A stretch of DNA of 64,000 nucleotides from positions 2,526,303 to 2,590,302 of the forward strand of contig CM082582.2 in assembly GCA_040954595.2 (NCBI GenBank), in the 5' to 3' direction. Position 1 is the stretch's first letter. Each line of letters opens with the position of its first letter. Below, piece by piece: positions 14,376 through 60,815 of the stretch. The DNA comes from Balanoglossus misakiensis (Eukaryota; Animalia; Hemichordata). A program made the translations under genes and the position numbers. The notes under the pieces were generated by a model, which was not told where the DNA came from, ran no database searches, and saw nothing but the letters and a program-made list of their open reading frames with translations.

Positions 14376-14953
14376 TATAACACACCATGCAGCGAACCCT
14401 CGATCGTGATTCGTCAATACGACGTCACGTGACATTAGTCATTTCGAACTGTTGCCTAGGGCATCAGTTCGATCGGTTTGGTGTGTTATAAAACACATGA
14501 TGACTGACATATTCGGGCAACAGTGTATTTTTAATGACCTCGGGACTGCCAGTCACACCAAAACAGTCTGTTTCCCTCGGGCTATGCCCTCGGGAAAACA
14601 AGACTGTTTTAGTTGTGACTAGCAGCACCCTCGGTCATCAAAATAATATAATATTCAAAGCCTTATTACTTAGCGGAATGATATAGCCTATTGTTATAAG
14701 GAATGGGTAAGGGTATCTTTTTAATAGGCTAAACCATGCGCAAAATAGCGTTAACAAGCTTTAGGGAGGGAGGGAGGGTCAGGCTAAATAAAGTACCTCC
14801 ACAACCCCACGCCTACCCCCAAATGTACGCGCTTCTACCGTTGTCTCTGAGTCTCCTCCGTTATCGAGTGACAAACTAAGTGTACCAATTATGTTGCCCT
14901 ATTTATACTCATGCCTTATGAATATTCATGAGATGCGTAAGGATATCGCTGCG

Positions 14954-14993
14954 TAATGAGGCTTTGAATAATATAATATTCAAAGCCTTATTA
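14954..14993. other. Circle-junction / recombinase site at the B1-A2 border
   Basis: TAATGAGGCTTTGAATA-ATATAA-TATTCAAAGCCTTATTA: 17-bp inverted arms (1 mismatch) with a 6-bp spacer. Confidence 0.8.
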
Positions 14994-15525
14994 CTTAGCT
15001 CAATGATATAGCCTATTGTTATAAGGAATGGGTAAGGGTATCTTTTTACCGTCCACATACTGCCTAAAGCGTAATAATTCTACCTAAACCATAAAGCACA
15101 CAACCCATACCTAAATAAATCAAAAACCTTTATTCAAAATAATTCCCCCATTCCTCATAACAATAGAAACATTCCCAGCAATTAACATATGAGAACATCA
15201 TTACATCCAAGGAATAAAAGTGGTAACCATACACATTCAAACTGAAAAATGGAGCAGATTCATCTCTAAAATAATCACATTGATATTTAATGAAACTAAT
15301 AGAAATTCATAGCAGTCTCCAGACACAAAATATCAGATGAACAAACAAGTGGCAAATATTCACCCTATACTACAGGTACATTGTACAGTCAAATTACAAA
15401 TCCAAATGTAACAGTTTTCACAGAAGAACCAGCTACTGATAAAAGGCTGGTCTACAAGAAGTTACAATATTCTCCAAATTTTCATATTTAAGAGTAATAT
15501 CATCACGAGTATCAATAGCATCTAT

Positions 15526-16731
15526 TTACCTAGAAGCAGGAGCCTCTGCTTTTCCAACCTTATGGAGCTGCATATAGTGGTTTGCAGTCTTTTCTGATCT
15601 CCAACCAACATGGTCCATGAGATCTGAGATCTGTGAACCTGCCAATGCTAAAATTATTGCACATGCACTCCTAAAGCTGTGAGGAGTTTCACCTTGGTCA
15701 ATATTTAACACTTGCAAATATGTTTTCAGACGTTGGTAAATAGCTTGCGAGGATATGGGTTTTTGCACAACTTGACCACATGGGGTTGTTGGACGAAAAA
15801 GATAACCAAACCGTAAATCTATATCAAAACTTCTCGCTAACTTAATGTATTCCTCTATCGTACTCACGGCGCATAACGTCTTGTCATTACACCGCTTTAT
15901 TGCGAATAAATTACTCTGTTCACCTCTTAAAGTTTTACCAAAAGTATGATTAAATATGAAACCAGAATTATCTGGCAACCTTAAGATTTCCTGAGTTTTG
16001 ATCTGGCCAAGATCTCCTGCCCTATCTCCGGACATCATTAATACCTTAAATATGGTAATATCTCTAGCATAGACGTATGCTGCAACACGTGAAGTGCTAG
16101 ACACTAGTTTACTTAAAATGTAATCTAGAAGGATCCTTATCTTATTAGTAAAAATCGGCTTGGCCTGTTTAGGAGTTATATGTGCTTTGGCCTGCTCTTC
16201 ACCGGATTTCTTAATATATCTGTCAACCAAGGTAGAAGCGATTGGGTTTGTCTTACATAAACCCAGATTTAGCATCACCCCATAAAAGGACTTTAATTTA
16301 GCAGCTATATTTTTTAAGGTGCCTAAACGTAGACGTTTAGGACATTCACACTGATCAAACTTTCTGGTAACACTACCCAGGAACGGACATGTATTTATAT
16401 GAACCTGAGTTCGAGCATGTTTGTCTTTATGGATAAGAAATCTGACAATATCTACTGGCATCGCTTGAGTAAGGTCTTTAGGCTGAGGGAGTCCACTTAA
16501 GAAAGATTCCAAATTTTGTACCAATTTATCTTTCTGGATTTCATAAGCTGATTTTGAACCCAGTAGATCATTCATTCGAGCATCGATGATATCAAGATCA
16601 ACCTGAGTGCGCCCCCTCTCGGACGGATAAGGAACTGAGCTGACTACTTTGGCTGAGCAAATATGGCACTGTTTTTTGTCCTCTTGACCAAGAGAATTGC
16701 AGAGTAACTGAGTACCACATAACCAACATTC
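15526..16731 (-). CDS. Tyrosine recombinase with N-terminal CxxC-CxxC ribbon and ALOG domain (exon opens at acceptor 16731; first ATG 16575)
   Basis: ALOG-like TQVHINTCPFLG..CECPKRL..GT; catalytic R (GDRAGD), HSFR, H/W (HVGW), Y (NHY); frame open 52 codons upstream of the ATG. Confidence 0.92.
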   Translation of the reverse strand, partial: ECWLCGTQLLCNSLGQEDKKQCHICSAKVVSSVPYPSERGRTQVDLDIIDARMNDLLGSKSAYEIQKDKLVQNLESFLSGLPQPKDLTQAMPVDIVRFLIHKDKHARTQVHINTCPFLGSVTRKFDQCECPKRLRLGTLKNIAAKLKSFYGVMLNLGLCKTNPIASTLVDRYIKKSGEEQAKAHITPKQAKPIFTNKIRILLDYILSKLVSSTSRVAAYVYARDITIFKVLMMSGDRAGDLGQIKTQEILRLPDNSGFIFNHTFGKTLRGEQSNLFAIKRCNDKTLCAVSTIEEYIKLARSFDIDLRFGYLFRPTTPCGQVVQKPISSQAIYQRLKTYLQVLNIDQGETPHSFRSACAIILALAGSQISDLMDHVGWRSEKTANHYMQLHKVGKAEAPASR

Positions 16732-16818
16732 CTAATGAAATATAAAATGTAGAAGTACACAACTTTAATCTTGAAACAGCTGTATTATTCAATAGATGGA
16801 GCTTTTAATAGTAATTGC

Positions 16819-18999
16819 CTAACTGCCAAAAGTTGCTGCAAATAACTTTCCTTTAGTTTTCGCGTGAACATAGCCATTTTTTGATGGGACAAGAATGAAA
16901 TTATCCTCTCCTTTAGACGCAACTTGCACACAGACTGATCCATGTTTCTTAACTAATGGCCACCATAAAGGCGTAAAATTGTGGACTTCTAATAGAACAG
17001 TGGCTGATAAACCTTCCGAAATTACATGTCTCACCACTGGCAATTGCAAGCATACAGGGGGAAATATGAACAACCTATCGGCTTCTTGAAACGTATGTGC
17101 AAAGAAATTGACCCCTTCACAATTAGGTTGGGGATAAGGAGCTACGAAACGAGACAATTTTGCGTTGGAACATATGGCCATCGCATCTACATCATATGGA
17201 CCAAACTGATCATTTATTCTCTGCCAAGCCGTACTAGTAAGGGTGGTGTCATTTTCGTTTACATTTCTCGATACATAGTCAGCAAGATTGGCTGCTGATC
17301 TAACATGGGATAAATTCAACCATACATTTCGTTCTACAGCTACGTGAAATATATTCTTGAGGATCTGATTGAGTTTTAATGACTTTGAACCAGGAGAACC
17401 ATTATTCCACGCTTGTACTAATACAAGTGAATCTACAGCCACATCTAATCGTAGATTATCTATTTTATCTCCAAGAGCTAACAAAGTGCGGTGTAGAGCT
17501 TCTGCTTCTTTTACGTTTATAGACTCATTCCGGAATGAATCCTCCCAGAAATCGCTTATTTCAACTGACATACTCTCGTTAACGGTGGTATCGGGATGTA
17601 AAACAGCCCCCCATTTATAAGCGCTAGCATCTGTAAACAATTTAAGAGCATAGTGTCTTTCTTTAAGCCATTTGAACGGACCTGCATTAACAATTATGTT
17701 TTGCCATTCCCTTAGCTCTTCTGCTAACTCTTGCCTTATTGGAACAAGAAATGTTGCTTTTCCCTGAGCTTTTGACACCGATAGAGCCATTTGACGAATG
17801 TATAATCTTGCAGATGGAATTGCAAGCGCGAAAGACATACACTTCCCCATAACTTTTTGAATCAGAGGGAGAGGGACTGCCCGTTTACTAAGAATATCAT
17901 TCGTTAATTCCAAAAATCTATCAATCTTAATCTGTGGAACAATAAACGCCTCTAAAGGCGAGTCGACCTGCATACCTAACATAACTAAAGACTTAACGGG
18001 TGTTAGTATACTTTTCTGTAACGCTAAGAAATAACCCGCCAGTACACAAATAGAGGCTAATATAAAAGCCGAAGCTTCTGCGCGTTCAAAAGGAGACAAT
18101 TTCCTTTCTAACCGGTCGTGACATACCAGTAAAGGTCCCGCATGGCGATCGTCAATATATTGGATACATGGAACCCCAAGCTTTCTAGCATAACTAGTGA
18201 CGGCGTAACCAACAGTATGATAAACATAAGCTGAAAGCTTCCACCCAAACGGCAAAGTATTACACACAAACCAAACTCCCCCCCATTGAAAACCAAAGTA
18301 TGTTCTATCCGGTTCATATACAAGAATGTGGTCATAACCACTTTTATCATCACACTTGACCTGATAGTCATCTTTGTGCAGGTAACGACTAACATCAACC
18401 AACTTGTCGAGCTTGAACGGAATATCTTGAATCCATAGATTTAAGTACCTCATGTCTATACACATCCTTGGCTTCTTGGGCTCAACAACGATTGGCATCA
18501 CAACATGAGGAGGAGGATCACGACCGACAATACCCCAAACCGAAACAGCACCTGTTTTTAATCGGTCAGCTATCGTCTTTGCTATAAATGGAGCAAAATC
18601 CTTGTTGCTAGGGGGATTGTTAAACTGTCTAGGAGGAGGCAGATCATGGAAAAACTGTTGTCCTTTAAAACCTCCTGAGAAATGGCGTAGATATGGAGAC
18701 ACTTTCACACCATTCGAAATCCAAGACATGATTTCATGTTTATTTACCAGATCCATCGTAAGCTCATTCCATGCATCTGGGTATTTGTGCAGCTCTCCAG
18801 CAATAAACTGATCTGGGTTTCTGAATGACATTTCACTAAGAGATACTTTTCTCAAACCATTGGAGACCAAAGATAACACTTCGAACATGTTACCATCAGG
18901 AGCCTGTCCGGGGGTGCCCCCAAGCGTTGTCCAATCATACGAAGTTTTTGGAAGTAGTTTGATATTGACAGGATTATTTAACTCCCAAACTTGAACAAT
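16819..18999 (-). CDS. pol: DIRS-type pol: reverse transcriptase, RNase H, adenine-methyltransferase-like C-terminus (exon opens at 18999; first ATG 18888)
   Basis: LPFGW, YIDD, FTDAS..WGA, INVKEAEA, NLADYVSR; MTase-like DVDAMA..NAK..FIFPP. Confidence 0.93.
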   Translation of the reverse strand: MVQVWELNNPVNIKLLPKTSYDWTTLGGTPGQAPDGNMFEVLSLVSNGLRKVSLSEMSFRNPDQFIAGELHKYPDAWNELTMDLVNKHEIMSWISNGVKVSPYLRHFSGGFKGQQFFHDLPPPRQFNNPPSNKDFAPFIAKTIADRLKTGAVSVWGIVGRDPPPHVVMPIVVEPKKPRMCIDMRYLNLWIQDIPFKLDKLVDVSRYLHKDDYQVKCDDKSGYDHILVYEPDRTYFGFQWGGVWFVCNTLPFGWKLSAYVYHTVGYAVTSYARKLGVPCIQYIDDRHAGPLLVCHDRLERKLSPFERAEASAFILASICVLAGYFLALQKSILTPVKSLVMLGMQVDSPLEAFIVPQIKIDRFLELTNDILSKRAVPLPLIQKVMGKCMSFALAIPSARLYIRQMALSVSKAQGKATFLVPIRQELAEELREWQNIIVNAGPFKWLKERHYALKLFTDASAYKWGAVLHPDTTVNESMSVEISDFWEDSFRNESINVKEAEALHRTLLALGDKIDNLRLDVAVDSLVLVQAWNNGSPGSKSLKLNQILKNIFHVAVERNVWLNLSHVRSAANLADYVSRNVNENDTTLTSTAWQRINDQFGPYDVDAMAICSNAKLSRFVAPYPQPNCEGVNFFAHTFQEADRLFIFPPVCLQLPVVRHVISEGLSATVLLEVHNFTPLWWPLVKKHGSVCVQVASKGEDNFILVPSKNGYVHAKTKGKLFAATFGS

Positions 19000-19416
19000 C
19001 TAATGAGGAACAAACAGAAACTAGGGCTATAATATAAACCAACAGTGCATTCTAGATAACATAAGGGGACACCCCCGGACAGGACCATGCGAAAGGCCGG
19101 CCTGCAAAATGCAGAGGGCACAGAGAGTGGCCCCCCTATCCGGGAGTTTATTGAACTATGAAAAATGGACTACTTTAAAGGTGAGCACATTATAAGCAAG
19201 AATACCCAAGACAAAACAAACACATTCATCATGTTAAACCCTTGTTTTATTATGCAAACATCAAACGTTATGAGACAAAGCTTTTTTTCTTTTTTTTTAC
19301 ATAGGCAAATTATCTTTTACACACTCATAACAATGACACTCTAAGTGAGAATCAAATACATCTGAACTGGCCAATTCACAATTCTGTACAAGTCAGTCAT
19401 TCCATCATAATTCAGA

Positions 19417-19866
19417 CTACTTCTTATCTGGACAATTTCTGGCTATATGACCTTTGTTTCCACAAACGTAACACTTAATGTCTCTTCCTCTGCCTTGAGG
19501 GCGTTGAAATTGATAAGGACGAGAATAACTGCGCGTGTTCTTTAGAAATTTGCCCACTTTTGACGCGATTTCTTCTTCCTCTTTGTTGCCAAGTAGAAGG
19601 AGGACTAACTTTCCCGCGTCACTCCCAAAATCATTACTCTCAAATTGTGCTAGCACAGCTCTGAAACGTTGAAGTTTCGAGTGATTCACCAAGGTAGCCC
19701 TGTCTACCAACACTCTCAGGGCATTGATGATAGCGTATCTCGATGCGCCAGAATGTGCCATATCCATAACTTTTTGCAGAGCTTCATCGACATTCGCAGA
19801 GTCTGCCGCTTTCTGTAGCTTTTCCACTTTTTCTTCCAATTGTTTCAAAGCACACGCCACTGGCAT
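19417..19866 (-). CDS. gag: gag-like exon 2 with CCHC zinc knuckle
   Basis: CYVCGNKGHIARNC; preceded by acceptor TATTTTTCAG|ATG. Confidence 0.88.
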   Translation of the reverse strand: MPVACALKQLEEKVEKLQKAADSANVDEALQKVMDMAHSGASRYAIINALRVLVDRATLVNHSKLQRFRAVLAQFESNDFGSDAGKLVLLLLGNKEEEEIASKVGKFLKNTRSYSRPYQFQRPQGRGRDIKCYVCGNKGHIARNCPDKK

Positions 19867-19969
19867 CTGAAAAATAGTGCATAAATTATTTCAACACGTG
19901 AGCAAGCATAACACTTCTTTTCATTTTAAAGTCATGCAATTACCCTTCTTAGCACCATTTTCACTAAAC

Positions 19970-20376
19970 AAGACCACTTGTTGCATACCTCAGCGTATGC
20001 AAATTTTACAAAGCAAGACCACTTGTTGCATACCTCAACGTATGCAAAATTTTACAAAGCGAGACTACTTGTTGCATACCTCAACGTATGCAAAATTTTA
20101 CAAAGCAAGACCACTTGTTGCATACCTCAGCGTATGCAAATTTTACACGGCAAGACCACATGTTGCATACCTCAGCGTATGCAAATTTTCACAAAGCAAG
20201 ACCACTTGTTGCATGCCTCAGGGTATGCAAATTTTCACAAAACAAGACCACTTGTTGCATACCTCGGCGTATGCAAATTTTTCACAGAGCAAGATCACCT
20301 GTTGCATACCTCAACGTATGCAAATTTTACAAAGCAAGACCGCTAGTTGCGTCCCTCAACGTAAGCAAAATTACAG
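19970..20376. repeat. Nine ~45-47-bp tandem units in the element's first intron
   Basis: Unit AAGACCACTTGTTGCATACCTCAGCGTATGCAAATTTTACAAAGC. Confidence 0.95.
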
Positions 20377-20985
20377 TTAAAAAAAAAAAGTAAAAATTGA
20401 GGGAAATAAAGATGGTGTCCCTGTAACGCTGAGCAAAAACCGTAACTTCGCACAGGTGAACAAAGACATAACTAAGGAAAGGAAAAAACTACTAACAAAA
20501 AGTATAAAACGCTAATCTACAACACCTAAAAGCACAGGTAACAAGCCGCTATATAACAACCACATGTATACAAAAAAACAAAAGAGAAAACTGAATGAAA
20601 AGGAAAAGGAAAAATAAGAATACGACAAGACAGAATACAAAGGTATGCTACAAAATAATTACTAACAAGAAAATAAAATAAAACAGGCGCTAAGGAGAAT
20701 TGCAAAATCGAAAAATTTTCAAACTTATCGCACACACCAATGGAACAAAGAGAAAAAAAATGAAACAACGTACACAGAACGACTACGATCGAATTAAAAA
20801 ACCAAACAGTTCAAAAACTGAAAACTCATGTTCTCAACGACGATAACAAATAACCGTGTCTCAACGTAACCCCAGAAACATTGAAACTTGGCCGACCGCA
20901 TATGCACGATAAAAAGGGGTAACTCGACAATCAGGCAATGTAAAACTTGAACAGAATGAAAGAAACACATGATATTGAGTCTCAC

Positions 20986-21195
20986 CTGAGATTCAGATTC
21001 TTTAGAGGTTGTTTCAGTAACTACTACAGGTGTAGGAACTTGTGCGCTGGTAGAAGGGTTTTGAGCCGGAGTCCTCGCAGCACCAGGATTGTCTTGAGTC
21101 GATACCTGAGTAGCAGCATTACCAGAAATTGAAGGACGGGACAAAGCCGAAGCAAAAGACCTGGTTGCATCTGCTATAGTGTTAGGACGATCCAT
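20986..21195 (-). CDS. Shared leader exon, 70 codons (S/T/P/A-rich, likely disordered)
   Basis: ATG at 21195; donor CAG|GTGAGA at 20986/20985 in phase 0; composition turns intron-like after the donor. Confidence 0.8.
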
Positions 21196-21234
21196 TCTGT
21201 CGTGTTACTGTGGCTCCTCCGTTATCGAGTGACA

Positions 21235-21290
21235 AACTAAGTGTACCAATTATGTTGCCCTATTTATACTCATGCCTTATGAATATTCAT
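21235..21290 (-). promoter_or_regulatory. Pol II core promoter in repeat A1 (TATA + Inr); identical copy in A2
   Basis: TATAAATA at 21268-21261, Inr TTAGTT with the A at 21238 (30 nt downstream), ATGAATATTCAT palindrome upstream. Confidence 0.7.
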
Positions 21291-21364
21291 GAGATGCGTA
21301 AGGATATCGCTGCGTAATGAGGCTTTGAATACACTGTTGCCCTCATTGTCAGTCATCATGTGTA

Positions 21365-26368: not shown

Positions 26369-29300
26369 TAGTCCATGGGCCAGACAAGAATTTGGTATCA
26401 GAAAGATGGACAAAGCCTCATGTGGTTTTTTGGAAAGGCCTATATCTCTAGATTATGAATTGGGGTGATAGCCCTGCCTATCGAGTAGCTTTCTGCATTT
26501 TTTCCCTCAAAAACTAATGTAAGAACATAAAAATTTCCGACCCAAATTTTGGGGGTAGGGGAACTTTAAATTGCTGTAACTCCAGCAAAACTAAAGCCAG
26601 AACAGTCATTTCCACTCAAATTGTGTGTTTTTTAGAACTCTACCAATATAATATATTTTAGTGGTAATTCGTTTTGAATTGAGGTCAATAGAGGTCAAAA
26701 GGTCATGAAATTTGGGTCATTCTGAAAATTTGTAGTATGACTATTTCTTGAACGATTTTTTTGAACGTAAGTCTTTAAATGTCATTTAGAAGATAAAATA
26801 CTCTCCCAGAATCTATTTCAAACCAATAGAAAACCTTATTATTCATTTATGACTAGAAAAACACAAATAAGGAGAAACGACAGAAAGACATCCAATTTTC
26901 CACTCAGTTTTAAGGGTAGGGGAAACTTAAGTTCTTGTAACTCCGGCAAAAATAAAGCCAGAACAGTCATCTAACACTCAAATTGTGAAGTTTGAAGCAT
27001 TCTATCGAATGATACAACTTTATGTCAGTTATCTGTAAAACAACAAAGGTCAACAAAGGTCAAAAGGTAAAAAAATTGGGCCATCAGTGCCCAAAATTGG
27101 CCGTATGACCATTTCTCACATTATTTTATTGACTTCATGGTATCAAATGTATTAAAGAAAGATAAAATACTGTAGCAGAAGCTATTTTAAACCAAGTGAA
27201 GTCATATATAAAAGAAAATAGAAACCATGTAGTTATATATTTTCTTCTTGGTGTCAAATTTCATTTGTTCTGGACCTTTTTTAATCGACATCAGGATCAC
27301 AGTCCATATCAGAACAGTCAGAATCATTCTCAAATGTTTCGTCGTCAACCTTTTGATTGTCACATGTCTGTAAGCGGCACATGTAAGTGCATTTGAGGCC
27401 ATTTACCATACATGGGCAATCTCCGTGTACACATTTTCTCTTGCACTGGCATGCCAGAAGCTCCAGTACAGCATCAGGAGCCACCTGTCCGTGTATCCAA
27501 TCCAAGTCAAGGCCCCCATCAGCTCTATGTAGCCATCCATGGCCATTTGGTTCAGGAATGTCAGGCATTGGTAGCAAAGCCCTCTTCCATACCCCAGCTT
27601 GAAAATTTGCACGTTCTATGTGTTGCTTGAGACTGTCCCCACAAGGAGGGAGTGTGCTGGAATCAACTTCTCCTCTCTTTGAAAGAAAGATTTCGTGACG
27701 GAGAATGTTCACGTCACATGTTTTTGAAGAAGCAGCATACATGCGACACGTGAACTCTTCCAATTTTTTAATTATCGATTGATCCACATTCCAGGATGTC
27801 CCAAGCTGTATAAATGCATCAATTGCCACATCATCCTTTGTCAATTTTTTCCATGGTCCTGTCTTCCCTCGGCCAGCAAATGCACTTACGGAATCACAGC
27901 CTGTAAATGCATGGAATGCTATCAAAGCCTGCGACAACTTATCACCTAACACTATCCGCAATTTCCCTATGTCCATGTATCTTACTCTAGCTTTGGTTCC
28001 TCTTTTCTGATACAGGGAAGCACGGATTTCCTTTGAAAATGCTATGCAGAGTATAAATACGTCAGTGTCCTCGGACACAATTATGACTGACGTATATCCA
28101 TGGTCAGATGCATGCTTTGCATGCAGAAGCATCCTTGTGTCTGCTTCTTCTTGAGAGGAAATCAGATCATCAACCAGGGACACTCCCGTCTGATCAATGC
28201 GAAAACACTGAATACCACATGTAACAAACAGTGTTTTTTTGTCAATGATAGATCTGCTCTGCTCCGACATCCATTCTTCTGTGATGAATGCAATGAGCAT
28301 GGTCTTGTTTTGGGCCTCTGAGAGGAAACTTCGCCACTGTTTGACCTTATGACCTGCAGCAATACTTTTGAACTTTACACCAGTCCCAGAGCCTCGATTC
28401 ACTCGTTCTGCATCTTTAATTGAACCTTCTTGATAAACATCAAACACAACATCAACCCTGTCACTTTTGTCTCCTTCTCGAAGAACTCTCTTCAATACAG
28501 TCTTAGCAATGTCACCAAATGTTTTTTGGTTACCTTCCACTTTCTGCACAATGCTCATACCATCAACAATGCATGCCGATTTTTCAGAGAAAACTTCAAG
28601 CACTGGGACATTCTGCGCTATGTCGTTCATGAAATTTGCCTTGTTAGTTTTTCTGAGTGACCCATCCGCATTGGCCAGTGCCCAGGGAACTGGGCCAAGT
28701 GGATGACTTAGAACCTGTTGCATCTCAAGTTGCCTTGTCTCAGCAACAACAATGATATGTCCAAAGAGATTCCTGTCAGCTTTAAGGACTATTTCTTTTC
28801 CTTTGCGCATCACTTTCTTTGCGTACACATCAGTGAAGGTCTTCAATTTCTGCTTCTTCAGTGTGGCAAAGAAGTCAACTGTACCCATTTCAAGACGTTT
28901 AGTTCTGAATTCCTTGAATGCCTCTTCGCCAACCTTTAAAGCATTCATCAGATCATCTGCAATTTCAGTGGGTGGCATAGCTGCTGTGGCCAGATTTATG
29001 AGGCTGTTTTGGTCAGACCTGAATGGGTTAATCCAGCTTTCCTCCATCAGGTTGACAAGGGACTGGACGTCTGACTCGTCCTTTAATATCCTGGTGTGTT
29101 GTAAATCTGAGTGGTTCAATTGAGAGCCCGCAAGGCCAACCATTTCCCTTAGCTGTCTAAGAAAGAGGCTCCTGTATTCAGCATTCAGATAGTACTTCTG
29201 CACAGCCCCACTTTTCAAACTGAAACCTTTTGTACCACCATCAGTTTGGGTGTCCTTATTGATGGTTTCTTCGATGGTTTGATCAAAAGGTATCTTGCCA

Positions 29301-32300
29301 AAGGGATTGCTTGGACCAAGTTGTACTGAAATTCCTCCATGCATGAAGTGTTGATACACATCTGGATAGTCCATTCTCAGACGGCACATGGAAGAAAAAT
29401 AGTATGAAAGGTACCGTGCGTAGTTCAGTCGGTCGTAGGCAAAACACCATGGTATCATATATCTGATACACATAAGGTGGTCCTCAAAATTTCCTTCCCT
29501 GGATGCACGGACAAGCCCGAGGACAATCTCCACCATATCCACGTATGACATCCAAAAGTTAGACAGATCACCATTTCCAGTTCTCAGAAAGTCCAAGTAT
29601 TCTTGAAATCGCTGTAGTATATGAGAACAGGAGTGTATGTCCTGGAACTTGAGCCAGGTTTCACCAGATATATCCTCTGCGAATTCGTTCACATGGAGCA
29701 ATGCTTCAGCCAGCTTGTTTTTGTCTCCATCCCCCAAGCATGCTTCAAACCCACTCCATGCTAAGCGAAGGAGAGACTCATACATCAGTTTATGTAGCCG
29801 AATAGCTCGGTTGTATTTCTTACCATCCAAAACCATCCCTATCGAACCATCAGCAATCACACCTGATTCTACCGATAGATCTCGCAGCCCTGCATCACCA
29901 AATCGTTTTCCAATCACTGCAAGCATGGTGCAAATGGTATGAAAGACTCCCATTCTCAGGACAATGGGCTGAAAAGTCCGTGGGTTCTTCCATATTACCT
30001 CACAGGCCTTGGCATAAAGTGCTTGGTCAAAAACACACACAATCACATTCAAATTGAGGGCTTGCATCATTTTTAGAGACCGCAGAAGAACTTCATAAAC
30101 TGTTCCCAAATCAGTGGCTGGGGCGTTCACTGTCGGTAGGTATGCAATATTGTCTTCAATAATGTCAATGCCACTTCTCAGTTTGATGTTGAACCCAGTC
30201 CAGCTGCTGACTTGCTGAGAATGCATGTTGGCCAGGCGGGACAATACCCATGCAATGTTCTTTATATGTGTGGCGCGTACAATGTTTGGTAACTGAGTGT
30301 CAACTGATTCTATTGGTTTAGGTCCCACGCGTTTGCCAGCATTGTATATGGGAATATCATGACTGTCTTCTGAGATAGAGCGTTGTTTTGTCTTTGGTGC
30401 TCGAAGTGACACCCTTTGCTCAGCATCCTCATCGAGTTCCTTCTGTTGTATAGCGATTCCATTGACTCGATGCGAGGTGCCCCCTCCACTGAGAGTTTCC
30501 TCCAAACGGTCTATATTGTCCCAAACCAACGTTGTGAAAACACCAGGACGCAAGTCTGTTGGTAATGGTACTTCATCTCCGGATGACAACTTCCGCAAAC
30601 AAAGTGCTGTATCAATTTGCTGCATCATGGAATACGAAATACTGTGACCAAGGCGATTCAGGGTGTGTATCAGTTCAACATTCCCAGTAAGTGATTTGAC
30701 AGCATAAGGTATTAGAACATGTTTTGCTGTTTTTTCATTTCCATTGGTAACAGCATAAACCACATCTTGAGCAAAGGAGTTGCTTAATCTTGACACTCGC
30801 TCAGTCTGGACATCACAGTTGGGTTCCCCACTCAAAAGTACTTTGTAAAACTTGGACAAGGGCGCTGGAATATTTAGAGATTTAGTATCAGGGGGCCAAT
30901 CATCGCTTACGCCCCTAGATAATATATCCTTCCGCAGGATTAGAGCAGATGTGGTGATGATACTTTCATCTGTTTGTTTTTCTGCTGCAAGAAGTTCTTT
31001 TCTTACAGCATTGTACTTCAGGATAACAGTACCAATATCTAGTGATGACGGATATACAAGCACCCTACCATTTACATCATTCAAAAAAATCAATGTCCCT
31101 TTGAATTCCGTATTTAGCGTACGCTGCAAGTTTTTTTTGGTGGAATTGTTAACCTGTTTAACACCAAGTTGGAGCATTTTGGTAACTAACTTGTTTGATA
31201 GATCAGTCAGGGGAACTACCTCAGGGTTTGTGAACAAATCATTTCTGATAAAAGAAAATAACTCTTCTTGAGCAATTTGCAGGACATCCTCATAACTAGT
31301 ATCTTGATCATGTTGACTTTCATCAACCTCCATATGACTTGAACCTGCTTGAATATCAGGCCTTGTATACTCCCTATAACACTTTCTATGATAGTGACCC
31401 TCAGCAGCAACCAACTCACGACTGAGAAGTGCAAGAATTTTACTGTCATTTTTTCTTGTTGCTGCCTCCCTTAATGTGTTGTCCGCACGCAATTGCTGAC
31501 AACGAACTAAAGGAGCTCTTGTCCTACTTCCCTTCATGTACTTGGTGGTGGAGCAAAATAGGCAAATATGATCGTACACCCGAGACCCTTGTATGCTCGA
31601 CCTCTTTTCACGTTCCAGTGTATTGGTTCCTTCAGATGATGACGACTGCTCATTAGAAAGGATAGATTCAAGAGCCTTTTTCATCGTAAAGAGACTTCTG
31701 CATTTCCGATGGTACTGCACCTGAGGAATTTCACCTTCGCCCAAACCAATGGCGAGGTCCTGAATTGGTTTGTATTTTCGTATGTTAGCTGCATTCAGCA
31801 AAGTTATCCAGGAGGCGTGATCTTGTAGAGTGACGAGGCTTGCTTTGCGGTCGGATTCATGACAGTCGAGAAAACAATCCCGTCGAGCCCTCTTGTGTGG
31901 AATAGAAGATGGGTTTGCCATTTTGTATTTATTATACTGGACCTGAATATAAATAGATCATGCACATATTGTGTTGAGGAAAAAAATAAGCAGATTTTTG
32001 AACCTTTGCTTGGCTTGTCATCTGCTGTGCCTGTACACTGTAGGATGGTATCCAACAATAATACGCAATCAGAGCTACAATGCTATAATAACCCTTCTCG
32101 TAGTATTGTTAGGGATCTAGTCATCATACAAGTACAGTGCACATGAGCAGCATGCAAAGGTTCACAAATCTGCACACCCGTTCTCCTAAACACCATATGT
32201 GCATGATCAGTTGGGTGTATACTTACCTGTTAGATGGCCAAACCTACCCCAAAATCCGTGGGAAATTGTTTGTTATTATCCTGTTTCTCTACTAATTTTT

Positions 32301-45909: not shown

Positions 45910-47064
45910 CCTGGTTGTATCTTGGCCGTATTGGAGAGTTTGGTGCCTGTTTCCGCTTCTGCATTGGTGACGAGAATTTGCTGCCTGGATGGTGCACGCC
46001 GGAGGAATATTGCAGAGGATAGCCGGATCGCTATATTCAGCATTGGTGTGGGTGTGTGTGCTGGGAAGGAAGAAAGTGGACCGGGACCTGCAACGTTCAG
46101 TGAGGTCAACGCTACCTGGGATGGAATCCAAGCTCCATATACATCGCCGAGGTGGGTTGCCGATGCAAGTTGGAAACTGACTGGATACGAACGGTGCTGT
46201 TGACTGTACGGTTAGACATTTTATTTTGGGTGCATATAAAAACACCCAACTATTTCATGTGTTGCTCATGTGAATATGATTGGTCAGAAATTGTTGCTGT
46301 AACTATTTATTTTTTCATGACAAAGTATCGTGTGTGAACAACAATTTTGATGTTTGTAGAGCCGGAACTTGCGTCGTACTGATTTTTTTTGTATGTTGGC
46401 TATCAGGACCATATACACACTTCATAGAATTGGTCAACTGACTTTTTTTTTGACAATTCTTTAGCGTAATTGATGTGTGCCACTGCTGTATGTCTCAGCA
46501 CAGCGGGTTTTTTTTTTTTTTCTACCTGTTTAGTGGATACATTTTTTTACATGCGTGTTAAGTATCATTAATTATTCTTGTGTACGTCCATGTGGGATGT
46601 GTAGGTAAAGAAGCCCTGCAAGTGGGTACTAAATGCGTTGGATGTCCCACCACAAGGTTTTGTAATTGCCTATATGAACATTTATGAATTTGTTAGCGAT
46701 AGCCGGTTGTTTATACTTATTTATTTGTTTATTTATTTAGCATAAGCTACTTATTGATTACTTTATTCATCTAGTTATTATTATAAAGAAAATGAAGGAA
46801 TTTATACAATTGAGTTAATCCGCCACTCATTCCTTTATTTGCATACTTACCCAATTATTCTGTACCAGGAAGTGCCAATTGAGGCATTCATATACGTCTC
46901 TGCCATTTTTTGAAGCTGTTACATTTATTGATATTTGTGATAGTTGAGCAACTGCAAGGTTGCGTATAGCGTGTTTGTTCTTACCTTTCTTTTTGCATTG
47001 TTGATGCGATAGTTAATCCTTATTTATTATATGTCACTTATTATACTTACTTGACATCATTATC

Positions 47065-48174
47065 ATGAATACTGGTGATAGTCCGGGAATTCCGCTCCAT
47101 CAGGTTGATCCTGAATTAGGACTTAGACCAGCTAGGTTTAAAAAGGATAGCGAGCTACCTCCCACACAAGGTAATATGCAGCCAGCTACACCTATGGGCA
47201 CATTGGGTCGACAATCATCTCCCTTTCCCACTCACCTTACACCACAGGCATCTCAGTACACCCCTGTACCTCATACTTCTATGACTTCATCACACCAAAT
47301 CAGAAATGTGCCACTATTTACTGGGGGACCTGAATGTAAAATTTTAATTGAGGACTGGATACGGGATATGCAATATTTACTGAATGCAGGGGGTATGCCA
47401 GCACACTTACAGTTCATGACTATAGTACGAAATTTGGGAGGGGAGGCCAGGAAATTGGTTTTGAACTTACCAGTGAATGAGCAGTCACCAGAAAGGGCAT
47501 TCGAGGAACTCCGTGCTGAGTATGGGGATGTTCGCTCATTAGACCCCATGGCTGATTTTTACTCGCGCTTCCAACAACCAGGTGAATCACCCTGTTCATA
47601 TGCCATCTCACTGGAAGCTGTGTTACGTACAATAGAAGAAAGGCAGAATAGGGGATATACGTTTCCTGATCGCGATTATCGTCTTACTCATCAGTTTATG
47701 AGGGGACTACGAGATGATGTGGTGTATAATCGTATTTATCCTATGCAGCCATGGAACCTAACTTTTAGTGATTTGCGCACTCATCTACGCCGGTTGGCAA
47801 GTGAAAGCAGAGCTGTTCCATTAACGAAGCCCAAGAAATTCCATAGTCAACCGGTCCTCGTCCCAAAGACGGATACGAATGATGATGTCGGAAAGTCTAA
47901 GCCAAAACAAGAAGATGTGATGACATCCCAATTTAAAGAACTGACTGCATTGATGAAAAAGATGGCCACCAGTCAAGAGGAACAGGCGAGGAAGATGCAC
48001 GACCTGGAACAGAGAGTGGAATCCATGACAGCAAAGCTGAATAATAGTCCAAGTCAAGGAGGGATTGCTCAGGTACCGTATACCAATCGTTCTCGTTTCA
48101 AAGCAGGCCCTATTACTTGTTTCAAGTGTGGAAAAGAAGGCCATATCAGTAGACGGTGTCCATTAAACGAATAG
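47065..48174 (+). CDS. gag: Gypsy gag (PNMA-like capsid + CCHC knuckle)
   Basis: FTGG..IEDW, QQPGES..Y, QFMRGL, CFKCGKEGHISRRC. Confidence 0.93.
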   Translation: MNTGDSPGIPLHQVDPELGLRPARFKKDSELPPTQGNMQPATPMGTLGRQSSPFPTHLTPQASQYTPVPHTSMTSSHQIRNVPLFTGGPECKILIEDWIRDMQYLLNAGGMPAHLQFMTIVRNLGGEARKLVLNLPVNEQSPERAFEELRAEYGDVRSLDPMADFYSRFQQPGESPCSYAISLEAVLRTIEERQNRGYTFPDRDYRLTHQFMRGLRDDVVYNRIYPMQPWNLTFSDLRTHLRRLASESRAVPLTKPKKFHSQPVLVPKTDTNDDVGKSKPKQEDVMTSQFKELTALMKKMATSQEEQARKMHDLEQRVESMTAKLNNSPSQGGIAQVPYTNRSRFKAGPITCFKCGKEGHISRRCPLNE

Positions 48175-51100
48175 GGCCTGTTGCTGAAGGGCAGGCGACA
48201 GGCACTGAAGAAATGTTCAGCCCTATTGAGAAAAACTCGAAGAATGACTCTTTAAAGTCACGGTATCGGTGTAGTCAAGAACAGCCATTACGTGCAGTTA
48301 ATATGCCAGATGCCAGCCACCAACAGCTGATTGGCCCAGCAAACGAAGATGAAGTGATTGTAGATGGTGTACCCTGTAGGGCTCTAGTTGACACCGGATC
48401 GCAGATTACATCTATTTCAAAAACCTTTGTTCAGCAGCACCCCATATTACGTAATCAACCTATGCGGACCAGCAATATAACTATCGAAGGGGCATCAGCC
48501 GAAACAATTCCGTATGACGGCGTGATCTCTCTGGACTTGGAGTTTCTTGGTCAACGTTATAGTGATGTTCCAGCCTTTGTCATGCCGGATACTGATTACA
48601 GGAGGGAAGTGCCAGTTCTGATTGGAACAAATGTGATTCGGGCAAGTCGCATACATATGAGAAATACTCATGGGGCATGTTATCTTACCAAAGTGAAGAA
48701 AACATCGGCAGTCTGGCATCGAGTATATAGAGACACTGGGCGAACTGAAATTGGTGGACATGATGGACGAATTGGTGCTGCCAAATATACAGGACGTCGG
48801 CCATACATTATTCCCCCCAGAAGTGAGGTATGCATAAATTGCCGTGCCCCAAGAACTTCAGCGGAGAAGCCCTATACTGTCCTGGTGGAAGGTCCAAGCT
48901 GCAGTGGAGACTTGAATAATATTGTGACGGCTAGAAGTTTGAGCACAGTGGAGAATGATCGAGTCATTGTTAGAGTTTGTAATCTGTCTGCGAAACCCGT
49001 GAGGATATATCGCAATACAGCACTTGCCGATCTACACATCGATGCCAAAGTGAAGACTGTGTTGACTGACATGGTATGTACAGACAGAGGGAGACCAAAA
49101 ACACGAGTTCAATCCACTAGTGAAAGTAAACGCGCCAATGGAAACAAGTGTAGAAGATGGTATAGGTCACCAGCTCCACATCGTCCGGTCTCAGCTCAAG
49201 GAAGAGTGAAACCAGTATCTGAAGACATAGATTTCAGTAACTCTGCCTTTAAAACTCGGAAAGAATTAAAACAGTTACAAGCCCTACTGGATCGGAACTC
49301 GGATGTCTTCTCTCAACATCCTCTCGACTACGGGTGTACATCAACAGTGGAACATGAGATACCCCTTATAGATGAAAAGCCATTCCGGGTGCCACATCGA
49401 AGGATACCGCCTGCCCAGTATCAGGATGTACTCAAGCATCTGAATGATATGGAGGACTCTGGTGTGATAAGGCCAAGTAAATCTCCTTATGCATCCCCTA
49501 TAGTGGTTGTAAAGAAAAAGGATGGTAGCCTTCGGATATGTATTGACTATCGACAGTTGAATCTACGATCAGTCCGGGATGCATATCCATTACCAAGGAT
49601 GGACGAGGCTCTGGAAGCACTGGGGAAAGCAAAGTTCTTTTCATCGCTGGACCTTACTTCTGGATATTGGCAAGTGAAAGTGGCGGAGAAAGACCGACAC
49701 AAGACAGCGTTTACTACTCCCATGGGTCTCTATGAAACGAACCGGATGCCATTCGGCTTAATGAATGCGCCCGCAACCTTTTCTCGCTTGATGATGTGCT
49801 GTCTGGGGGATCAACACTTTGCAACTGTTCTTATATACCTAGATGACATAATCGTGTTTTCACAAACATTTGATGAACATCTTCGTAGACTGCAGATGGT
49901 GTTTGATAGACTAAGGCACCATGGATTGAAGTTAAAGCCATCGAAATGCTCGTTTCTGCGTCAAGAGGTTAAATACCTGGGACATATCGTGACAACCAAT
50001 GGTGTCCGTACAGACCCGGAGAAGATAGACAAAGTCAAGGCGTGGAAACGGCCCACAACTAGAAGGGAAGTCCTGCAGTTTCTTGGTTTTGCGGGTTATT
50101 ATCGCCGGTTCGTGAAAGGTTTTTCAAGAATTGCTGCTCCATTGAATCGGTTAGTGTCTGGTGATGCAAGAAAGAAGAAAGGTAGAAATCAACAGGTGAA
50201 ACTACCCCCCTTTGAGTGGACGACTGACTGTGAATCTGCTTTTTCACTTTTAAAACAGAAGCTCACCACTGCACCGATCCTGGGATATCCGGACTTTACC
50301 CTCCCTTTTATACTACAGGTGGATGCCTCCATTAGTGGTCTTGGCGCAGTTTTGGTACAACGGCAAGATGGAACAGATAGAGTAATTGCTTATGCTAGCC
50401 GTGGACTTACCCCTGCAGAAAGTCGCTACCCAGCCCACAAGTTAGAATTTCTCTCCTTAAAATGGGCGGTCACGGATAAGTTTAAAGATTATCTCTATGG
50501 AAATAAATTTACTGTGCTGACGGACAATAATCCTCTTGTTTATATAACCACCACAGCCAAACTGGATGCTACTAGTCAGCGATGGATCTCCCAGCTGGCC
50601 GTGTTTGACTTTGACATTAAATACCGCCCGGGAAAAAGTAATGCAAATGCCGATGGGTTGTCCAGGATGCCGAGAGAAGCCGTTGCATCTGCACTGAATG
50701 TGGTGAGCTCAGTCATCAGAAAGGAAGTCAAAGATTCCAGAGGTGAGCACCAATCTGTCCCCTGTAACCCTGTAGGTGATGGAAAGGAACCAACATTGGG
50801 AATCAACTACCTTAGTGGCACACCAGCCCTGCCAAACAAGTTGTCTGGGGAAATAGACCAGCTCCAGCGAAGTGATCCTGCCATTGGGAAAGTACTTAAA
50901 TTCAAGGAACGACAAACTATACCCACTAGACGCCAACGATCCCATGAGTCTAAGGAGACTAATTTGCTTCTGAAACAGTGGGAGAGGTTGGATGTTAGAA
51001 GTCATGTATTGTATAGATCCACCCGTGACCGAGAAGGAAATGTCTACTGGCAGCTGGTCTTACCTGAAACCTTGAGAGAACAGGCACTGATGGGACTCCA

Positions 51101-52724
51101 TGATAATCAAGGACACTTGGGGTTTGATAGAACCATGGACTTGGTGAGACGGAGGTATTATTGGCCAAATATGCAGTCATTTGTGAAAGAGTGGTGTAAC
51201 AGTTGCAAGCGTTGTGCCTTGAGGAAACTACCTCCCATGTCGACCAGGGTACCACTAGTTAACATTCGAACAACCGAACCGTTGGAGCTGGTGTGTATTG
51301 ACTTCTTGTCACTTGAGAAGTCCAAGGGAGGAGAAGAAAATGTGCTAGTGGTGACTGACCATTTCACAAAGTATGCTCAGGCCTATGCAACAAAGGACCA
51401 GAAAGCAAAGACAGTGGCGAAGGTGCTATGGAAACAGTTCTTCTGCCATTACGGTTTTCCCAAGAGAATTCATTCTGACCAAGGGAGGAACTTTGAAAGT
51501 GCTTTGGTTCGAGAACTGCGTACAATTACTGGCATCCAGAAAAGTCGGACCTCTCCTTATCACCCACAAGGAAATGGTATGAATGAACGCTTCAATCATA
51601 CGTTGCTGAACATGTTAGGCGCATTGGATCCATCTCAGAAGCAGGATTGGAAGGAATATTTGGAATGTCTTACCCATGCTTATAACTGTACCCGTCACGA
51701 TTCAACGGGACACTTGCCTTTCTTTCTGATGTTTATGAGACACCCACGTCTACCAGTTGATTTGGCTTTTGATGTGTCGGAGGAGGTCACTACAGAACCT
51801 AATTACTCGGAGTATGTGGAAAACCTACGCTCTAAATTAAGATGGGCATACCATGAAACCGTTCTCCGGACAGACGTTGCTAGGAAAAGACAAAAGAGGA
51901 ATTATGACAAAAAGGCAACGGATGATCTCGTTCTCCAACCGGGTGATAGAGTGCTTGTGGTGGACAAAACCCCAGTTATAGGAAAACACAAATTACGTGA
52001 CAAATGGGAACCCACTCCATATGTGATCATCTCAAAGAAGCCTGAAGTTCCAGTGTACGTCATCCAGTCTGAAGAAGGGTCAGCACAGCGTATCCTTCAC
52101 AGAAATATGCTTAAACCCTGTACATTTTTGACCCCCACAGATTCTCCAACTAAAATACAGTATGATGATAAAGACTGTGATGTTGATGAGGACAGCGATA
52201 CTAGCAGTGTCAGTAGCAGTGAAGATTGGATTGACATCCCAGTGGTTGGACGGGAAACCAGAACTCTTAACTATGAAGCAGATGAACCTGATGTGTCCGC
52301 CGATGTGTCCATGGGTAGCGAACGAAGAACAGGCCCTGAGATATTAGAACCAACAATTGCTGAACAAACGGAAGAATTCACTGCAGTAACCCTTCCTGAA
52401 TATATCATTGACGAAACCCATCAAGAAAAAGACATACTTTATCTGACAGCAGTTTCAAATGTGGAAGACGCTCTAACTACAATACCAGAACAGGAAGAGA
52501 TGTCTGCTAACCAGGGAAGGACGGAAGAGGGGGCCAGCGAACCGGAAGCCGCTGGATCGGACTCTGTTGATGTCGATGAACACCAAGAGAGCCCTGAAAA
52601 AATTGCCAGCGAGGCTCCAGAATCTACGGAAACTACTAGGAATGATGACCAGTCCAGATATCCAAGGAGAATGAGAAAGCCGCCTGATAGATTTGTTTGC
52701 ATGCATTGTTCACCGATAAATTGA
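48156..52724 (+). CDS. pol: Gypsy pol (protease, RT, RNase H, integrase), in -1 frame relative to gag
   Basis: LVDTGS, YLDD, VDAS, HHCC zinc finger, IDF..SDQG..ERFN; ATTAAAC just before the gag stop is a likely slippery site. Confidence 0.96.
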   Translation: MSIKRIGPVAEGQATGTEEMFSPIEKNSKNDSLKSRYRCSQEQPLRAVNMPDASHQQLIGPANEDEVIVDGVPCRALVDTGSQITSISKTFVQQHPILRNQPMRTSNITIEGASAETIPYDGVISLDLEFLGQRYSDVPAFVMPDTDYRREVPVLIGTNVIRASRIHMRNTHGACYLTKVKKTSAVWHRVYRDTGRTEIGGHDGRIGAAKYTGRRPYIIPPRSEVCINCRAPRTSAEKPYTVLVEGPSCSGDLNNIVTARSLSTVENDRVIVRVCNLSAKPVRIYRNTALADLHIDAKVKTVLTDMVCTDRGRPKTRVQSTSESKRANGNKCRRWYRSPAPHRPVSAQGRVKPVSEDIDFSNSAFKTRKELKQLQALLDRNSDVFSQHPLDYGCTSTVEHEIPLIDEKPFRVPHRRIPPAQYQDVLKHLNDMEDSGVIRPSKSPYASPIVVVKKKDGSLRICIDYRQLNLRSVRDAYPLPRMDEALEALGKAKFFSSLDLTSGYWQVKVAEKDRHKTAFTTPMGLYETNRMPFGLMNAPATFSRLMMCCLGDQHFATVLIYLDDIIVFSQTFDEHLRRLQMVFDRLRHHGLKLKPSKCSFLRQEVKYLGHIVTTNGVRTDPEKIDKVKAWKRPTTRREVLQFLGFAGYYRRFVKGFSRIAAPLNRLVSGDARKKKGRNQQVKLPPFEWTTDCESAFSLLKQKLTTAPILGYPDFTLPFILQVDASISGLGAVLVQRQDGTDRVIAYASRGLTPAESRYPAHKLEFLSLKWAVTDKFKDYLYGNKFTVLTDNNPLVYITTTAKLDATSQRWISQLAVFDFDIKYRPGKSNANADGLSRMPREAVASALNVVSSVIRKEVKDSRGEHQSVPCNPVGDGKEPTLGINYLSGTPALPNKLSGEIDQLQRSDPAIGKVLKFKERQTIPTRRQRSHESKETNLLLKQWERLDVRSHVLYRSTRDREGNVYWQLVLPETLREQALMGLHDNQGHLGFDRTMDLVRRRYYWPNMQSFVKEWCNSCKRCALRKLPPMSTRVPLVNIRTTEPLELVCIDFLSLEKSKGGEENVLVVTDHFTKYAQAYATKDQKAKTVAKVLWKQFFCHYGFPKRIHSDQGRNFESALVRELRTITGIQKSRTSPYHPQGNGMNERFNHTLLNMLGALDPSQKQDWKEYLECLTHAYNCTRHDSTGHLPFFLMFMRHPRLPVDLAFDVSEEVTTEPNYSEYVENLRSKLRWAYHETVLRTDVARKRQKRNYDKKATDDLVLQPGDRVLVVDKTPVIGKHKLRDKWEPTPYVIISKKPEVPVYVIQSEEGSAQRILHRNMLKPCTFLTPTDSPTKIQYDDKDCDVDEDSDTSSVSSSEDWIDIPVVGRETRTLNYEADEPDVSADVSMGSERRTGPEILEPTIAEQTEEFTAVTLPEYIIDETHQEKDILYLTAVSNVEDALTTIPEQEEMSANQGRTEEGASEPEAAGSDSVDVDEHQESPEKIASEAPESTETTRNDDQSRYPRRMRKPPDRFVCMHCSPIN

Positions 52725-59300: not shown

Positions 59301-60659
59301 ACATGGTTAATCGATTTACCCCTTCACACAACTTATAGTGTCTGTGTTATGCCCTTACACACAACACGCATAATCACTCTTTTGTGGTGCAGTTGAAGTT
59401 TGTTGCCGTCTAGAATCTCATATGAGGTAATATGCTTTAATATTTTCAAGCAAAAGTGCAGGGTGGCCGTGTAATCCAAATCCAGCCCAGTCGACTTTTT
59501 TTCGCCTTTCCGAACTTCAAGTTAGAATCGCTCGGTGATTATTTCCCGCCAAATATGCTAATTTTCACCTGAGAGGTCTTATATCCGCAACCAAATACCC
59601 TCGCTAGCCGTTTATAACCTCTAAACGATGCCCAAACCATACCATACCATATTACCGTGTTTCATGTATAGTCAAATTTCCAGAAGATTGTTTTGACAGC
59701 GGAAGATAATTAGGGGTTATTACACTAAATTTGGTCGATGGTCAAAATTCGTGTAATAACCCCTTTATCATACATGCCTACCTATAAAACAATACAATTT
59801 GCGAAAATGCGTCGAGAAAAACAATTTCACGGCCAGAAATTTGAACCGGGCGCCCTTGGATCACGGAAGGCACCCATAGCCAAGTGAGACAGGGCGATGC
59901 GATCAGGTGATCAACGTGTAGGCCGTAGTATTATTCTCAGGGGGCTGGCAGCTTTCATTACGATGGGCACATCTGCATTCTAAATACAATTGCCTACGTT
60001 CTCTTTCAAAATATCATGTTAACGATTATTTCGCATTGAGAATTCCGAAGAAGTAAATGTGATACATTCAACATGACAAAAAACTCCAGCTTTGAAAACT
60101 TTATTACAGCTTCTAATAACCCAATTTTACAACATCCCTCTCCACTAAAGTCCTATGCCCCGTACGTCGCTCGCGCGCGCAGCGAACTATCACGCCGATC
60201 ACCTAGTCAACGCTGTGTGAGGATTTCAGCGCATTCTCCTAAATAGTTCAAGACGGGGTATATCACTGAGTGAAATACCTACCGTATAATACAGTCGCAT
60301 CGATGACCCATATTAGGAGTTGCTTATTAGCATAAAAATTAACATATCGTTAATATGTAGAACGCGATCTGACAAATGACTTCTTTGGAAATACGTCTTT
60401 TCCCGCTCTTTGGTATGAACATTACGACCTTTTTATTCAAATGTAATTTTGGGGTGAAATACGCTGGGGATATCCCGTCAATTAAAAATACGAAAGTACG
60501 AGTCAAACTTGCTTCCTGGTCAATAAGAAAACATTTCACCAGTGCTTTTTAAAAATAATAAATTTTGATTTCGGCGCCTACACTATTTTTGACGACAGCG
60601 ACACAACAAGCCCCGCACAACCGAAAAAGCAGGCGAGCGAACACCATCACCAGGTCATC

Positions 60660-60815
60660 GTGTCACAATACTATACTCTTCAGAGAATGCCTTCACTCAT
60701 CGTACACCAAGTACTGGCAGTGGCGATGCACCACTATAAAGGTGCACTTACTGTCGGTGCTGGGTATCGCCTTCTGCGGGAGAAATCCAACCCATACGAT
60801 CAGAACGCCGTCAAA
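60660..60815 (+). pseudogene. HIRAN-like domain fragment
   Basis: AMHHYKG..YRLLREKSNPYDQNAVK matches the HIRAN L.REP.NPYD.NAV motif. Confidence 0.5.

Follow-up and report, generated by a model that had tools for sequence, protein, structure and literature searches.

Gag, Pol and recombinase of an ALOG-recombinase retrotransposon from Balanoglossus misakiensis are probably expressed by alternative splicing of one coding leader exon

A retrotransposon carried on the minus strand of a 64-kb stretch of the Balanoglossus misakiensis genome (contig CM082582.2, positions 2,526,303 to 2,590,302; hereafter the window, with positions counted from its first letter) probably uses a single promoter and a common 70-codon first exon, alternatively spliced, to produce Gag, Pol and a tyrosine recombinase (YR), with YR reached through a second donor located within pol. 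The element extends from 21331 to 14642, and its features are listed in Table 1. Two of the junctions, leader to gag and pol (84 codons) to YR, were seen in contigs assembled from sequencing runs, and the third, leader to pol, in gene models only. A preliminary description made from the sequence had proposed that one leader donor was spliced to three acceptors, a scheme that is partly supported: its outline holds, but one of its steps, the direct joining of the leader to YR, does not.

Promoter, leader exon and splice sites

The TATA box (TATAAATA, 21268-21261) and an initiator (Inr)-like TTAGTT with its A at 21238 are both located inside repeat A1. The leader exon ends at the phase-0 donor CAG/GTGAGA (20986), and the acceptors at 19866 (gag), 18999 (pol) and 16731 (YR) each consist of a pyrimidine tract and YAG. 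The three leader joins are all open in phase 0, as had been claimed, and every coordinate given in the preliminary description (TATA, Inr, ATG, donor and acceptors) is present in the sequence, to which the donor at 18748, the split direct repeats and a premature stop in YR have now been added. The acceptor TAG is also, as described, the in-frame stop that bounds the open reading frame (ORF) of pol (18999-16819) and of YR (16731-15526). The joined leader and gag give a product of 219 aa. The first Met of pol is codon 38, after 37 open codons that align with the conserved WE..(F)xP..W..G motif of homologues, and the first Met of YR follows 52 open codons from the acceptor. The additional donor, CTG/GTAAAT at 18748, is in phase 0 and lies 84 codons downstream of the pol acceptor.

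Sites formed by a tract and YAG are frequent across the element (30 among 6665 positions), and several of those in intron 1 outscore all three proposed acceptors, so that the sequence alone is suggestive and not decisive and outside evidence is needed. It is the reads and the relatives, rather than the sequence, that decide the splice scheme.

Junctions in sequencing runs

Eight of the 24 listed runs were aligned, all of them as assembled contigs; seven were guessed to be RNA (RNA-like runs, three of them aligned to the full element and four to its 3' part) and X1 is probably DNA. The junction from 20986 to 19866 predicted between leader and gag was found in three of the seven RNA-like runs (X7, X10 and X12), which come from two studies; in X7 and X12, 1119 nt are skipped with CT..AC at the borders on the plus strand. 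Depth at the joint was 10.8 in X7 and 47.7 in X12, and the X10 contig runs for 540 nt on gag and continues in 140 loose letters, the first 30 of which match the leader end at 29. The joint was absent from X1, which derives from the same sample as X7 and reaches a depth of 430-500 over the element. Contig depth in X7 and X12 was greater over leader and gag, a difference that cannot rank the genes and was left unused.

A second junction (16730/18747), in which 2016 nt bordered by CT..AC are skipped and the donor at 18748 is joined to the acceptor at 16731, was found in run X4. The direct join from 20986 to 16731 was seen in none of the three full-element RNA-like runs, and no loose end was found at 16731 in the four runs covering the 3' part. 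A strict scheme in which a single donor serves all three acceptors, and direct joining to the leader is the main source of YR in the window family, is unlikely given that no such joint appears in the runs and that the eight RefSeq models described below all use the 18748 donor, even though the direct join is in phase and rare forms may be lost from contigs.

Two further candidates were set aside. A contig of X9, of depth 2, ends at 19001 with two unaligned letters such as the leader-to-pol join would give, which is too little to count, and an X1 joint between 19102 and 19694 (TG..AG) is a non-canonical splice within a stretch common to other repeats.

RefSeq gene models and the zinc ribbon

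The join between the 18748 donor and the YR acceptor (MDL/ECW in protein) is present in all eight proteins of the RefSeq cluster. Five of them start with the leader joined to pol (leader/IVQV), and so consist of leader, pol codons 1-84 and YR, two being full length with 586 aa (70+84+432); the leader is joined straight to YR in none of the eight. A common N-terminal tag on all three proteins had been proposed, and the same 70 residues are indeed carried by the gag and YR products.

The YR ORF opens with a zinc ribbon, recognised by two CxxC pairs that can be aligned to those of homologous ribbons; the spacer is longer in the window element, and its ribbon lies one codon past the acceptor versus 14 codons in the relatives. 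This ribbon had been said to be translatable only through splicing. Splicing is needed, but the leader is not strictly so, since the ribbon can be obtained from Met38 of pol on an RNA spliced from pol to YR, the start used in two of the eight models. An AlphaFold2 prediction for the single 586-aa protein was uninformative (mean pLDDT, the predicted local distance difference test, 33.6). In the window copy YR is cut by a premature stop (15528-15526), past the catalytic motifs and 31 codons short of the end of the RefSeq models, which are other copies, and all six runs that cover this site read differently from the window copy. Among the listed substitutions between window copy and run contigs, 15 of 26 are synonymous, numbers that are too small to test the pre-ATG codons for selection.

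Table 1. Coordinates of the features of the retrotransposon and of its surroundings (RT, reverse transcriptase; MT, methyltransferase).
Feature	Position	Strand	Description
Repeat A1	21214..21331	-	118 bp; 118/118 identical to A2; contains TATA box and Inr-like site
Coding leader exon	20986..21195	-	ATG 21195; 210 nt = 70 codons; low complexity, S/T/P/A/Q-rich; joint 19866/20986 in X7 and X12, loose end in X10, N-terminus of 5/8 RefSeq models
Intron 1	19867..20985	-	1119 nt, GT..AG, T-rich
Gag exon	19417..19866	-	149 codons; C-terminal CCHC zinc knuckle; ATG immediately after acceptor
AATAAA hexamers, two	19147..19251 (at 19251, 19152)	-	gag-pol spacer; candidate poly(A) signals of gag mRNA
GC-rich multi-branch RNA fold	19067..19147	-	between poly(A) hexamers and pol acceptor
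pol ORF	16819..18999	-	726 codons from acceptor; RT with YIDD, RNase H motifs, MT-like C-terminus
Shared pol/YR exon	18748..18999	-	252 nt = 84 codons; internal phase-0 donor CTG/GTAAAT
Alternative intron	16732..18747	-	2016 nt, GT..AG; takes RT, RNase H and the MT-like C-terminus out of YR mRNA
YR exon	15433..16731	-	zinc ribbon, ALOG, recombinase (R, HxxR, HVGW, Y motifs)
Repeat B1	14967..15048	-	80/82 identical to B2
Repeat A2	14853..14970	-	overlaps B1 at TATT
Repeat B2	14642..14723	-	element 3' end, finishing in TATT
Small palindromic element, remainder	14500..14641	.	retrotransposon inserted in its arm; other piece 21332-21356
Families with leader exon	L019/L062, L020, L027, L078, L081		phase-0 GAG/GT

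Conservation of splice sites and leader in relatives

A scan with the YR alignment yielded 80 metagenome loci (the best 80 of 276) and two loci of a genome collection, 32-52% identical. A zinc-ribbon profile built from stored proteins matched 68 of these 82 loci, of which four were excluded for upstream DNA that was too short. A YAG exactly 42 nt (14 codons) before the first Cys of the ribbon was found in 50 of the 64 remaining loci and 27 of 34 groups, over a background of 2.5%, and in the interval of 30-54 nt a tract and YAG in phase 0 was present in 59 of 64 loci, in another phase in one, and in none in four. An in-frame Met occurs upstream of the ribbon in 11 loci, so that in 53 of 64 an unspliced RNA offers no start codon for the ribbon.

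These counts bear on the possibility that the splices are cryptic or host-driven, diverting element RNA with no role in the life cycle. The abundance of acceptor-like sites in the T-rich element (the 30 counted above) and the truncated YR of the window copy would agree with it, but a YR acceptor fixed in position and phase in those 27 groups at about 40% protein identity, and an unspliced ribbon lacking a start codon in those 53 loci, make it highly improbable.

The pol anchor motif was present in 29 loci, three of which were dropped for short upstream DNA. A phase-0 pol acceptor, usually the ORF-bounding TAG, lies 140-250 nt upstream of the motif in 21 of the 26 loci and 12 of 16 groups. Most gag matches start at a phase-0 tract and YAG, often without early Met, in a set of hand-picked seeds and not a blind count. 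The 5' ends of 10 loci were inspected, and six of them (five families) have a P/A/Q/N-rich exon of 41-74 codons ending in a phase-0 GAG/GT; of the other four, the first is truncated, the second carries a stop at the donor, and the last two have the leader out of view. The conservation of acceptors and phase 0 on which the preliminary scheme depended was thus observed for YR and for pol, together with the short leader and its phase-0 donor in five families. As relatives of about 40% identity keep the YR, pol and gag acceptors and the leader, splicing from one coding leader looks clade-wide.

Across the clade, different donors seem to supply the YR acceptor. In L008 and L025, a related pair of groups, another phase-0 donor (CAG/GTAATG) is placed 39 codons into pol. 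A strong phase-0 donor early in pol is missing from 14 of 16 groups, although the YR acceptor is kept, and there the direct leader-to-YR join of the strict scheme may be the rule. In amphioxus (RefSeq model P0155) and mussel (P0271), a leader precedes pol and gag is absent.

Seven oyster YR models (P0049, P0053, P0055, P0056, P0259, P0260 and P0263) have 161 N-terminal residues in common with the Gag P0261 and no zinc ribbon, which likely reflects a donor inside gag; 13 loci examined for a conserved donor within gag did not show one. L081 and L082 are whole or near-whole elements in two bacterial genome bins, probably by host contamination.

Weighing of the splice scheme

Several observations weigh against expression of all three genes from the spliced leader. 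The joint tool has a threshold of 31 letters per side that only X10 passes: the short sides of the leader-to-gag joints in X7 and X12 have 26 and 30 letters, and the pol-to-YR join is a single 58-nt contig of one run, with sides of 28 and 30 letters. The leader-to-pol join (20986 to 18999) that had been predicted is present in five of the eight RefSeq models and in none of the seven RNA-like runs. As contigs from runs guessed to be RNA, these data give no strand, start, end or level, nor a single three-exon transcript, and the RefSeq models are predictions, with support unseen and possibly dependent on the same RNA data. Three of the eight models start at an internal Met of pol (two at Met38 and one at a Met just before the donor). 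The window gag has its own ATG, some relatives carry a Met 2-4 codons past the pol acceptor, and pol acceptor-like sites are distributed 13:4:6 by phase, a weaker signal than that of the YR acceptor. The internal pol donor of the window is not conserved, with a GT at the same position in 0 of 29 relatives.

Some of these points would suit a leader attached to gag only, with the pol acceptor seldom used and with translation of Pol and YR beginning at internal Met codons, either on RNAs that have different starts or through reinitiation. Contigs of X4, X7, X10, X12 and X13 cross 18999 unspliced, the leader-to-pol join is absent from the reads, three models begin at a pol Met, and an early Met occurs in some relatives. 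Conserved residues lie, however, upstream of Met38, most intact relatives have a pol ORF delimited in phase by the acceptor TAG, and the leader is joined to pol in five of the eight models and likewise in those of amphioxus and mussel, so that a gag-only leader has little probability.

Intron 1 and the gag-pol spacer

A tandem array of a 46-bp unit (9.1 copies, 19957-20372) is present in intron 1, and unrelated tandem arrays also occur in intron 1 of relatives (L082 1-1373, L043 50-360, L020 1270-1770).

AATAAA or ATTAAA was found in the gag-pol spacer of 10 of 13 loci, compared with about 1.2 per kb overall, in an interval picked post hoc and with two pairs of related loci. This enrichment suggests that the gag mRNA ends there, as in plant copia elements. 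Between these hexamers and the pol acceptor the RNA folds with z <= -2 in eight of 14 families, and in 0 of 14 in each of two control stretches; it lies at 19147-19067 in the window and at -160..-40 from the pol acceptor in L018, L019, L030, L039, L056, L064 and L081. A comparison with Rfam gave no match (three hits at chance level), and RNAalifold on a plain alignment of eight hand-picked spacer segments gave no consensus structure. The fold may serve in packaging, in export or as a splice/poly(A) switch, and other repeats in runs X1 and X18 contain its core (19061-19102).

Structure, insertion site and classification of the element

The retrotransposon is PAT-like and encodes an ALOG recombinase, and its split direct repeats are arranged as A1 ... 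B1-A2 ... B2. Repeat A1 begins with the TATT junction core, and TATT is present at both ends of the element and where B1 meets A2. In the palindromic element that received the insertion, the intact arm has a single TATT, which indicates that insertion produced no target-site duplication. Three insertions are nested, the retrotransposon in an arm of the palindromic element, which resembles a miniature inverted-repeat transposable element, and the latter inside ORF2 of a long interspersed nuclear element, split into the pieces 22087-21356 and 14438-12131.

Pfam analysis of the ORFs revealed zf-CCHC in gag, RVT_1 in pol (29.3 bits, cut-off 29.6) and ALOG (PF04852, E 1.3e-17) and Phage_integrase (PF00589, E 3.5e-12) in YR, with ALOG N-terminal to the catalytic domain. 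A weak Dam match (pol 592-684, E 0.011, 15.9 bits against a cut-off of 28.1) lies in the position expected for the MT domain. The A1 / B1-A2-B2 repeats, the gag, RT-RNase H and YR genes and the short core without target duplication are those of PAT-like elements, and ALOG before the YR catalytic domain, with a zinc ribbon N-terminal to it, is the arrangement of the ALOG-domain DIRS1-type. A strict DIRS1-like identity was rejected, the termini being direct repeats and not inverted ones with an internal complementary region. The split direct repeats also fit Ngaro, yet the weak MT-like match is present and YR contains ALOG. A retrovirus with spliced pol or env was likewise discarded, as long terminal repeats (LTRs), protease and DDE integrase were not found in the Pfam scan and the likeness is in expression only.

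RefSeq proteins of the acorn worm Ptychodera flava, encoded on at least six scaffolds that differ in length, match the YR at 99% identity. Among the best 120 of 217 matches there was no near-identical full-length pol protein, and no relative of the element was found in the viral contigs searched.

Elsewhere in the window, a Gypsy-like LTR retrotransposon whose gag (385 aa) and pol (1523 aa) are both open occupies 47017-52724 (plus strand), a 1558-codon open frame without Pfam match at E 0.01 lies at 27281-31957 (minus strand) and a 151-codon frame at 60486-60941 (plus strand) has a weak HIRAN match (E 7e-4).

Comparison with known systems

Goodwin and Poulter reportedly described in 2004 a fungal DIRS1-like element with spliceosomal introns, which would be a precedent for introns that does not extend to a shared leader. 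Foamy virus pol and avian sarcoma-leukosis virus env are expressed from their own spliced RNA, the unspliced RNA being the genome, and in the avian viruses a few Gag codons are shared through splicing. Unlike these viruses, the window element has no protease, integrase, env or LTRs, its Gag needs a splice, the shared exon has 70 codons and a further donor exchanges RT for recombinase. In the plant Ty1/Copia element EVD, according to the available part of PMC5580714, a spliced and prematurely terminated Gag-only RNA, probably formed by early polyadenylation, sets the ratio of structural to catalytic proteins; the enzymes of EVD come from unspliced RNA as one polyprotein, whereas each enzyme of the window element likely needs its own splice.

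ALOG-domain retroposons with an N-terminal zinc ribbon were described by Iyer and Aravind in 2012 (PMC3537659). From the portion of that article available, these DIRS1-type elements resemble the window element in the zinc-knuckle Gag, RT-RNase H, terminal direct repeats, ribbon with ALOG and catalytic YR, marine invertebrate hosts and possibly the methylase-like domain, and differ in a ribbon with a shorter spacer, 14 codons and not one after the acceptor. The same portion infers that metazoan copies are inactive, whereas the window element has identical A1 and A2, open gag and pol and spliced RNA-like contigs. The words "splic", "intron" and "exon" have no match in PMC3537659. PAT-like (Pat1-like) elements, as treated in the available parts of PMC4157794 and PMC3266345, have in common with it the A1...B1-A2-B2 repeats, the downstream YR in the same orientation, the short junction core without target duplication and possibly the MT-like domain; they differ in having separate or overlapping ORFs with no splicing scheme, while the window YR has an ALOG insert.

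No description of splicing in DIRS, PAT or Ngaro elements was found in a search whose bounds excluded older subscription papers, supplements and Repbase entries. Look-ups of "splic" and "intron" gave no match in PMC3537659, PMC3266345 and PMC3783388, and the available parts of PMC4157794, PMC6681497, PMC12477816, PMC8226300, PMC5718144, PMC3212892 and PMC10294476 contain nothing on splicing of such elements. Mentions of splicing or introns in PMC7192593 concern, in the 12 of 20 places available, an engineered reporter intron. The element is of a known kind, and its expression scheme is undescribed in the literature found and backed by two junctions and strong conservation.

Proposed mechanism and implications

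The promoter in repeat A would give an unspliced genome RNA and three mRNAs, with leader-Gag (219 aa), leader-Pol (796 aa) and leader-pol84-YR (586 aa) as predicted products. The gag mRNA would terminate at the AATAAA of the spacer, and the Pol mRNA would arise from the leader-to-pol splice when the internal donor is ignored. In this way splice choice may put Gag far above Pol and YR, with RT and YR as mutually exclusive products of one exon. The shared N-terminus would provide a place to start translation and might, in addition, assist entry of the enzymes into the Gag particle; the low complexity and poor conservation of the leader are compatible with a functional tag or a mere start codon. 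The copied genome would be the unspliced RNA from repeat A1 to B2, and both introns are presumably retained in genomic copies because this RNA is the template. Integration by YR at the TATT core without duplication would follow the model known for this order.

It is conceivable, although we regard it as somewhat doubtful, that alternative splicing from one leader is ancestral for ALOG/PAT-like and perhaps all tyrosine-recombinase retrotransposons, with all proteins, Gag included, made from spliced RNA, the shared exon acting as a tag through which RT and recombinase are packaged together with Gag, and the structured spacer RNA, present only where the gag-pol spacer is retained, marking the genome for export or packaging. 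Under the splice scheme proposed here, the element would be a retrotransposon that keeps its introns by copying only unspliced RNA, in parallel to complex retroviruses. How the second and third ORFs of the DIRS order, with no protease and often no start codon, are expressed is unexplained in the literature found, and a conserved splice programme answers this. For annotation, the true N-termini of Pol and YR, zinc ribbon included, lie upstream of the first ATG, and start-less copies considered inactive may be intact; if the splicing is ancestral, many start-less ORFs deemed dead would be live genes.

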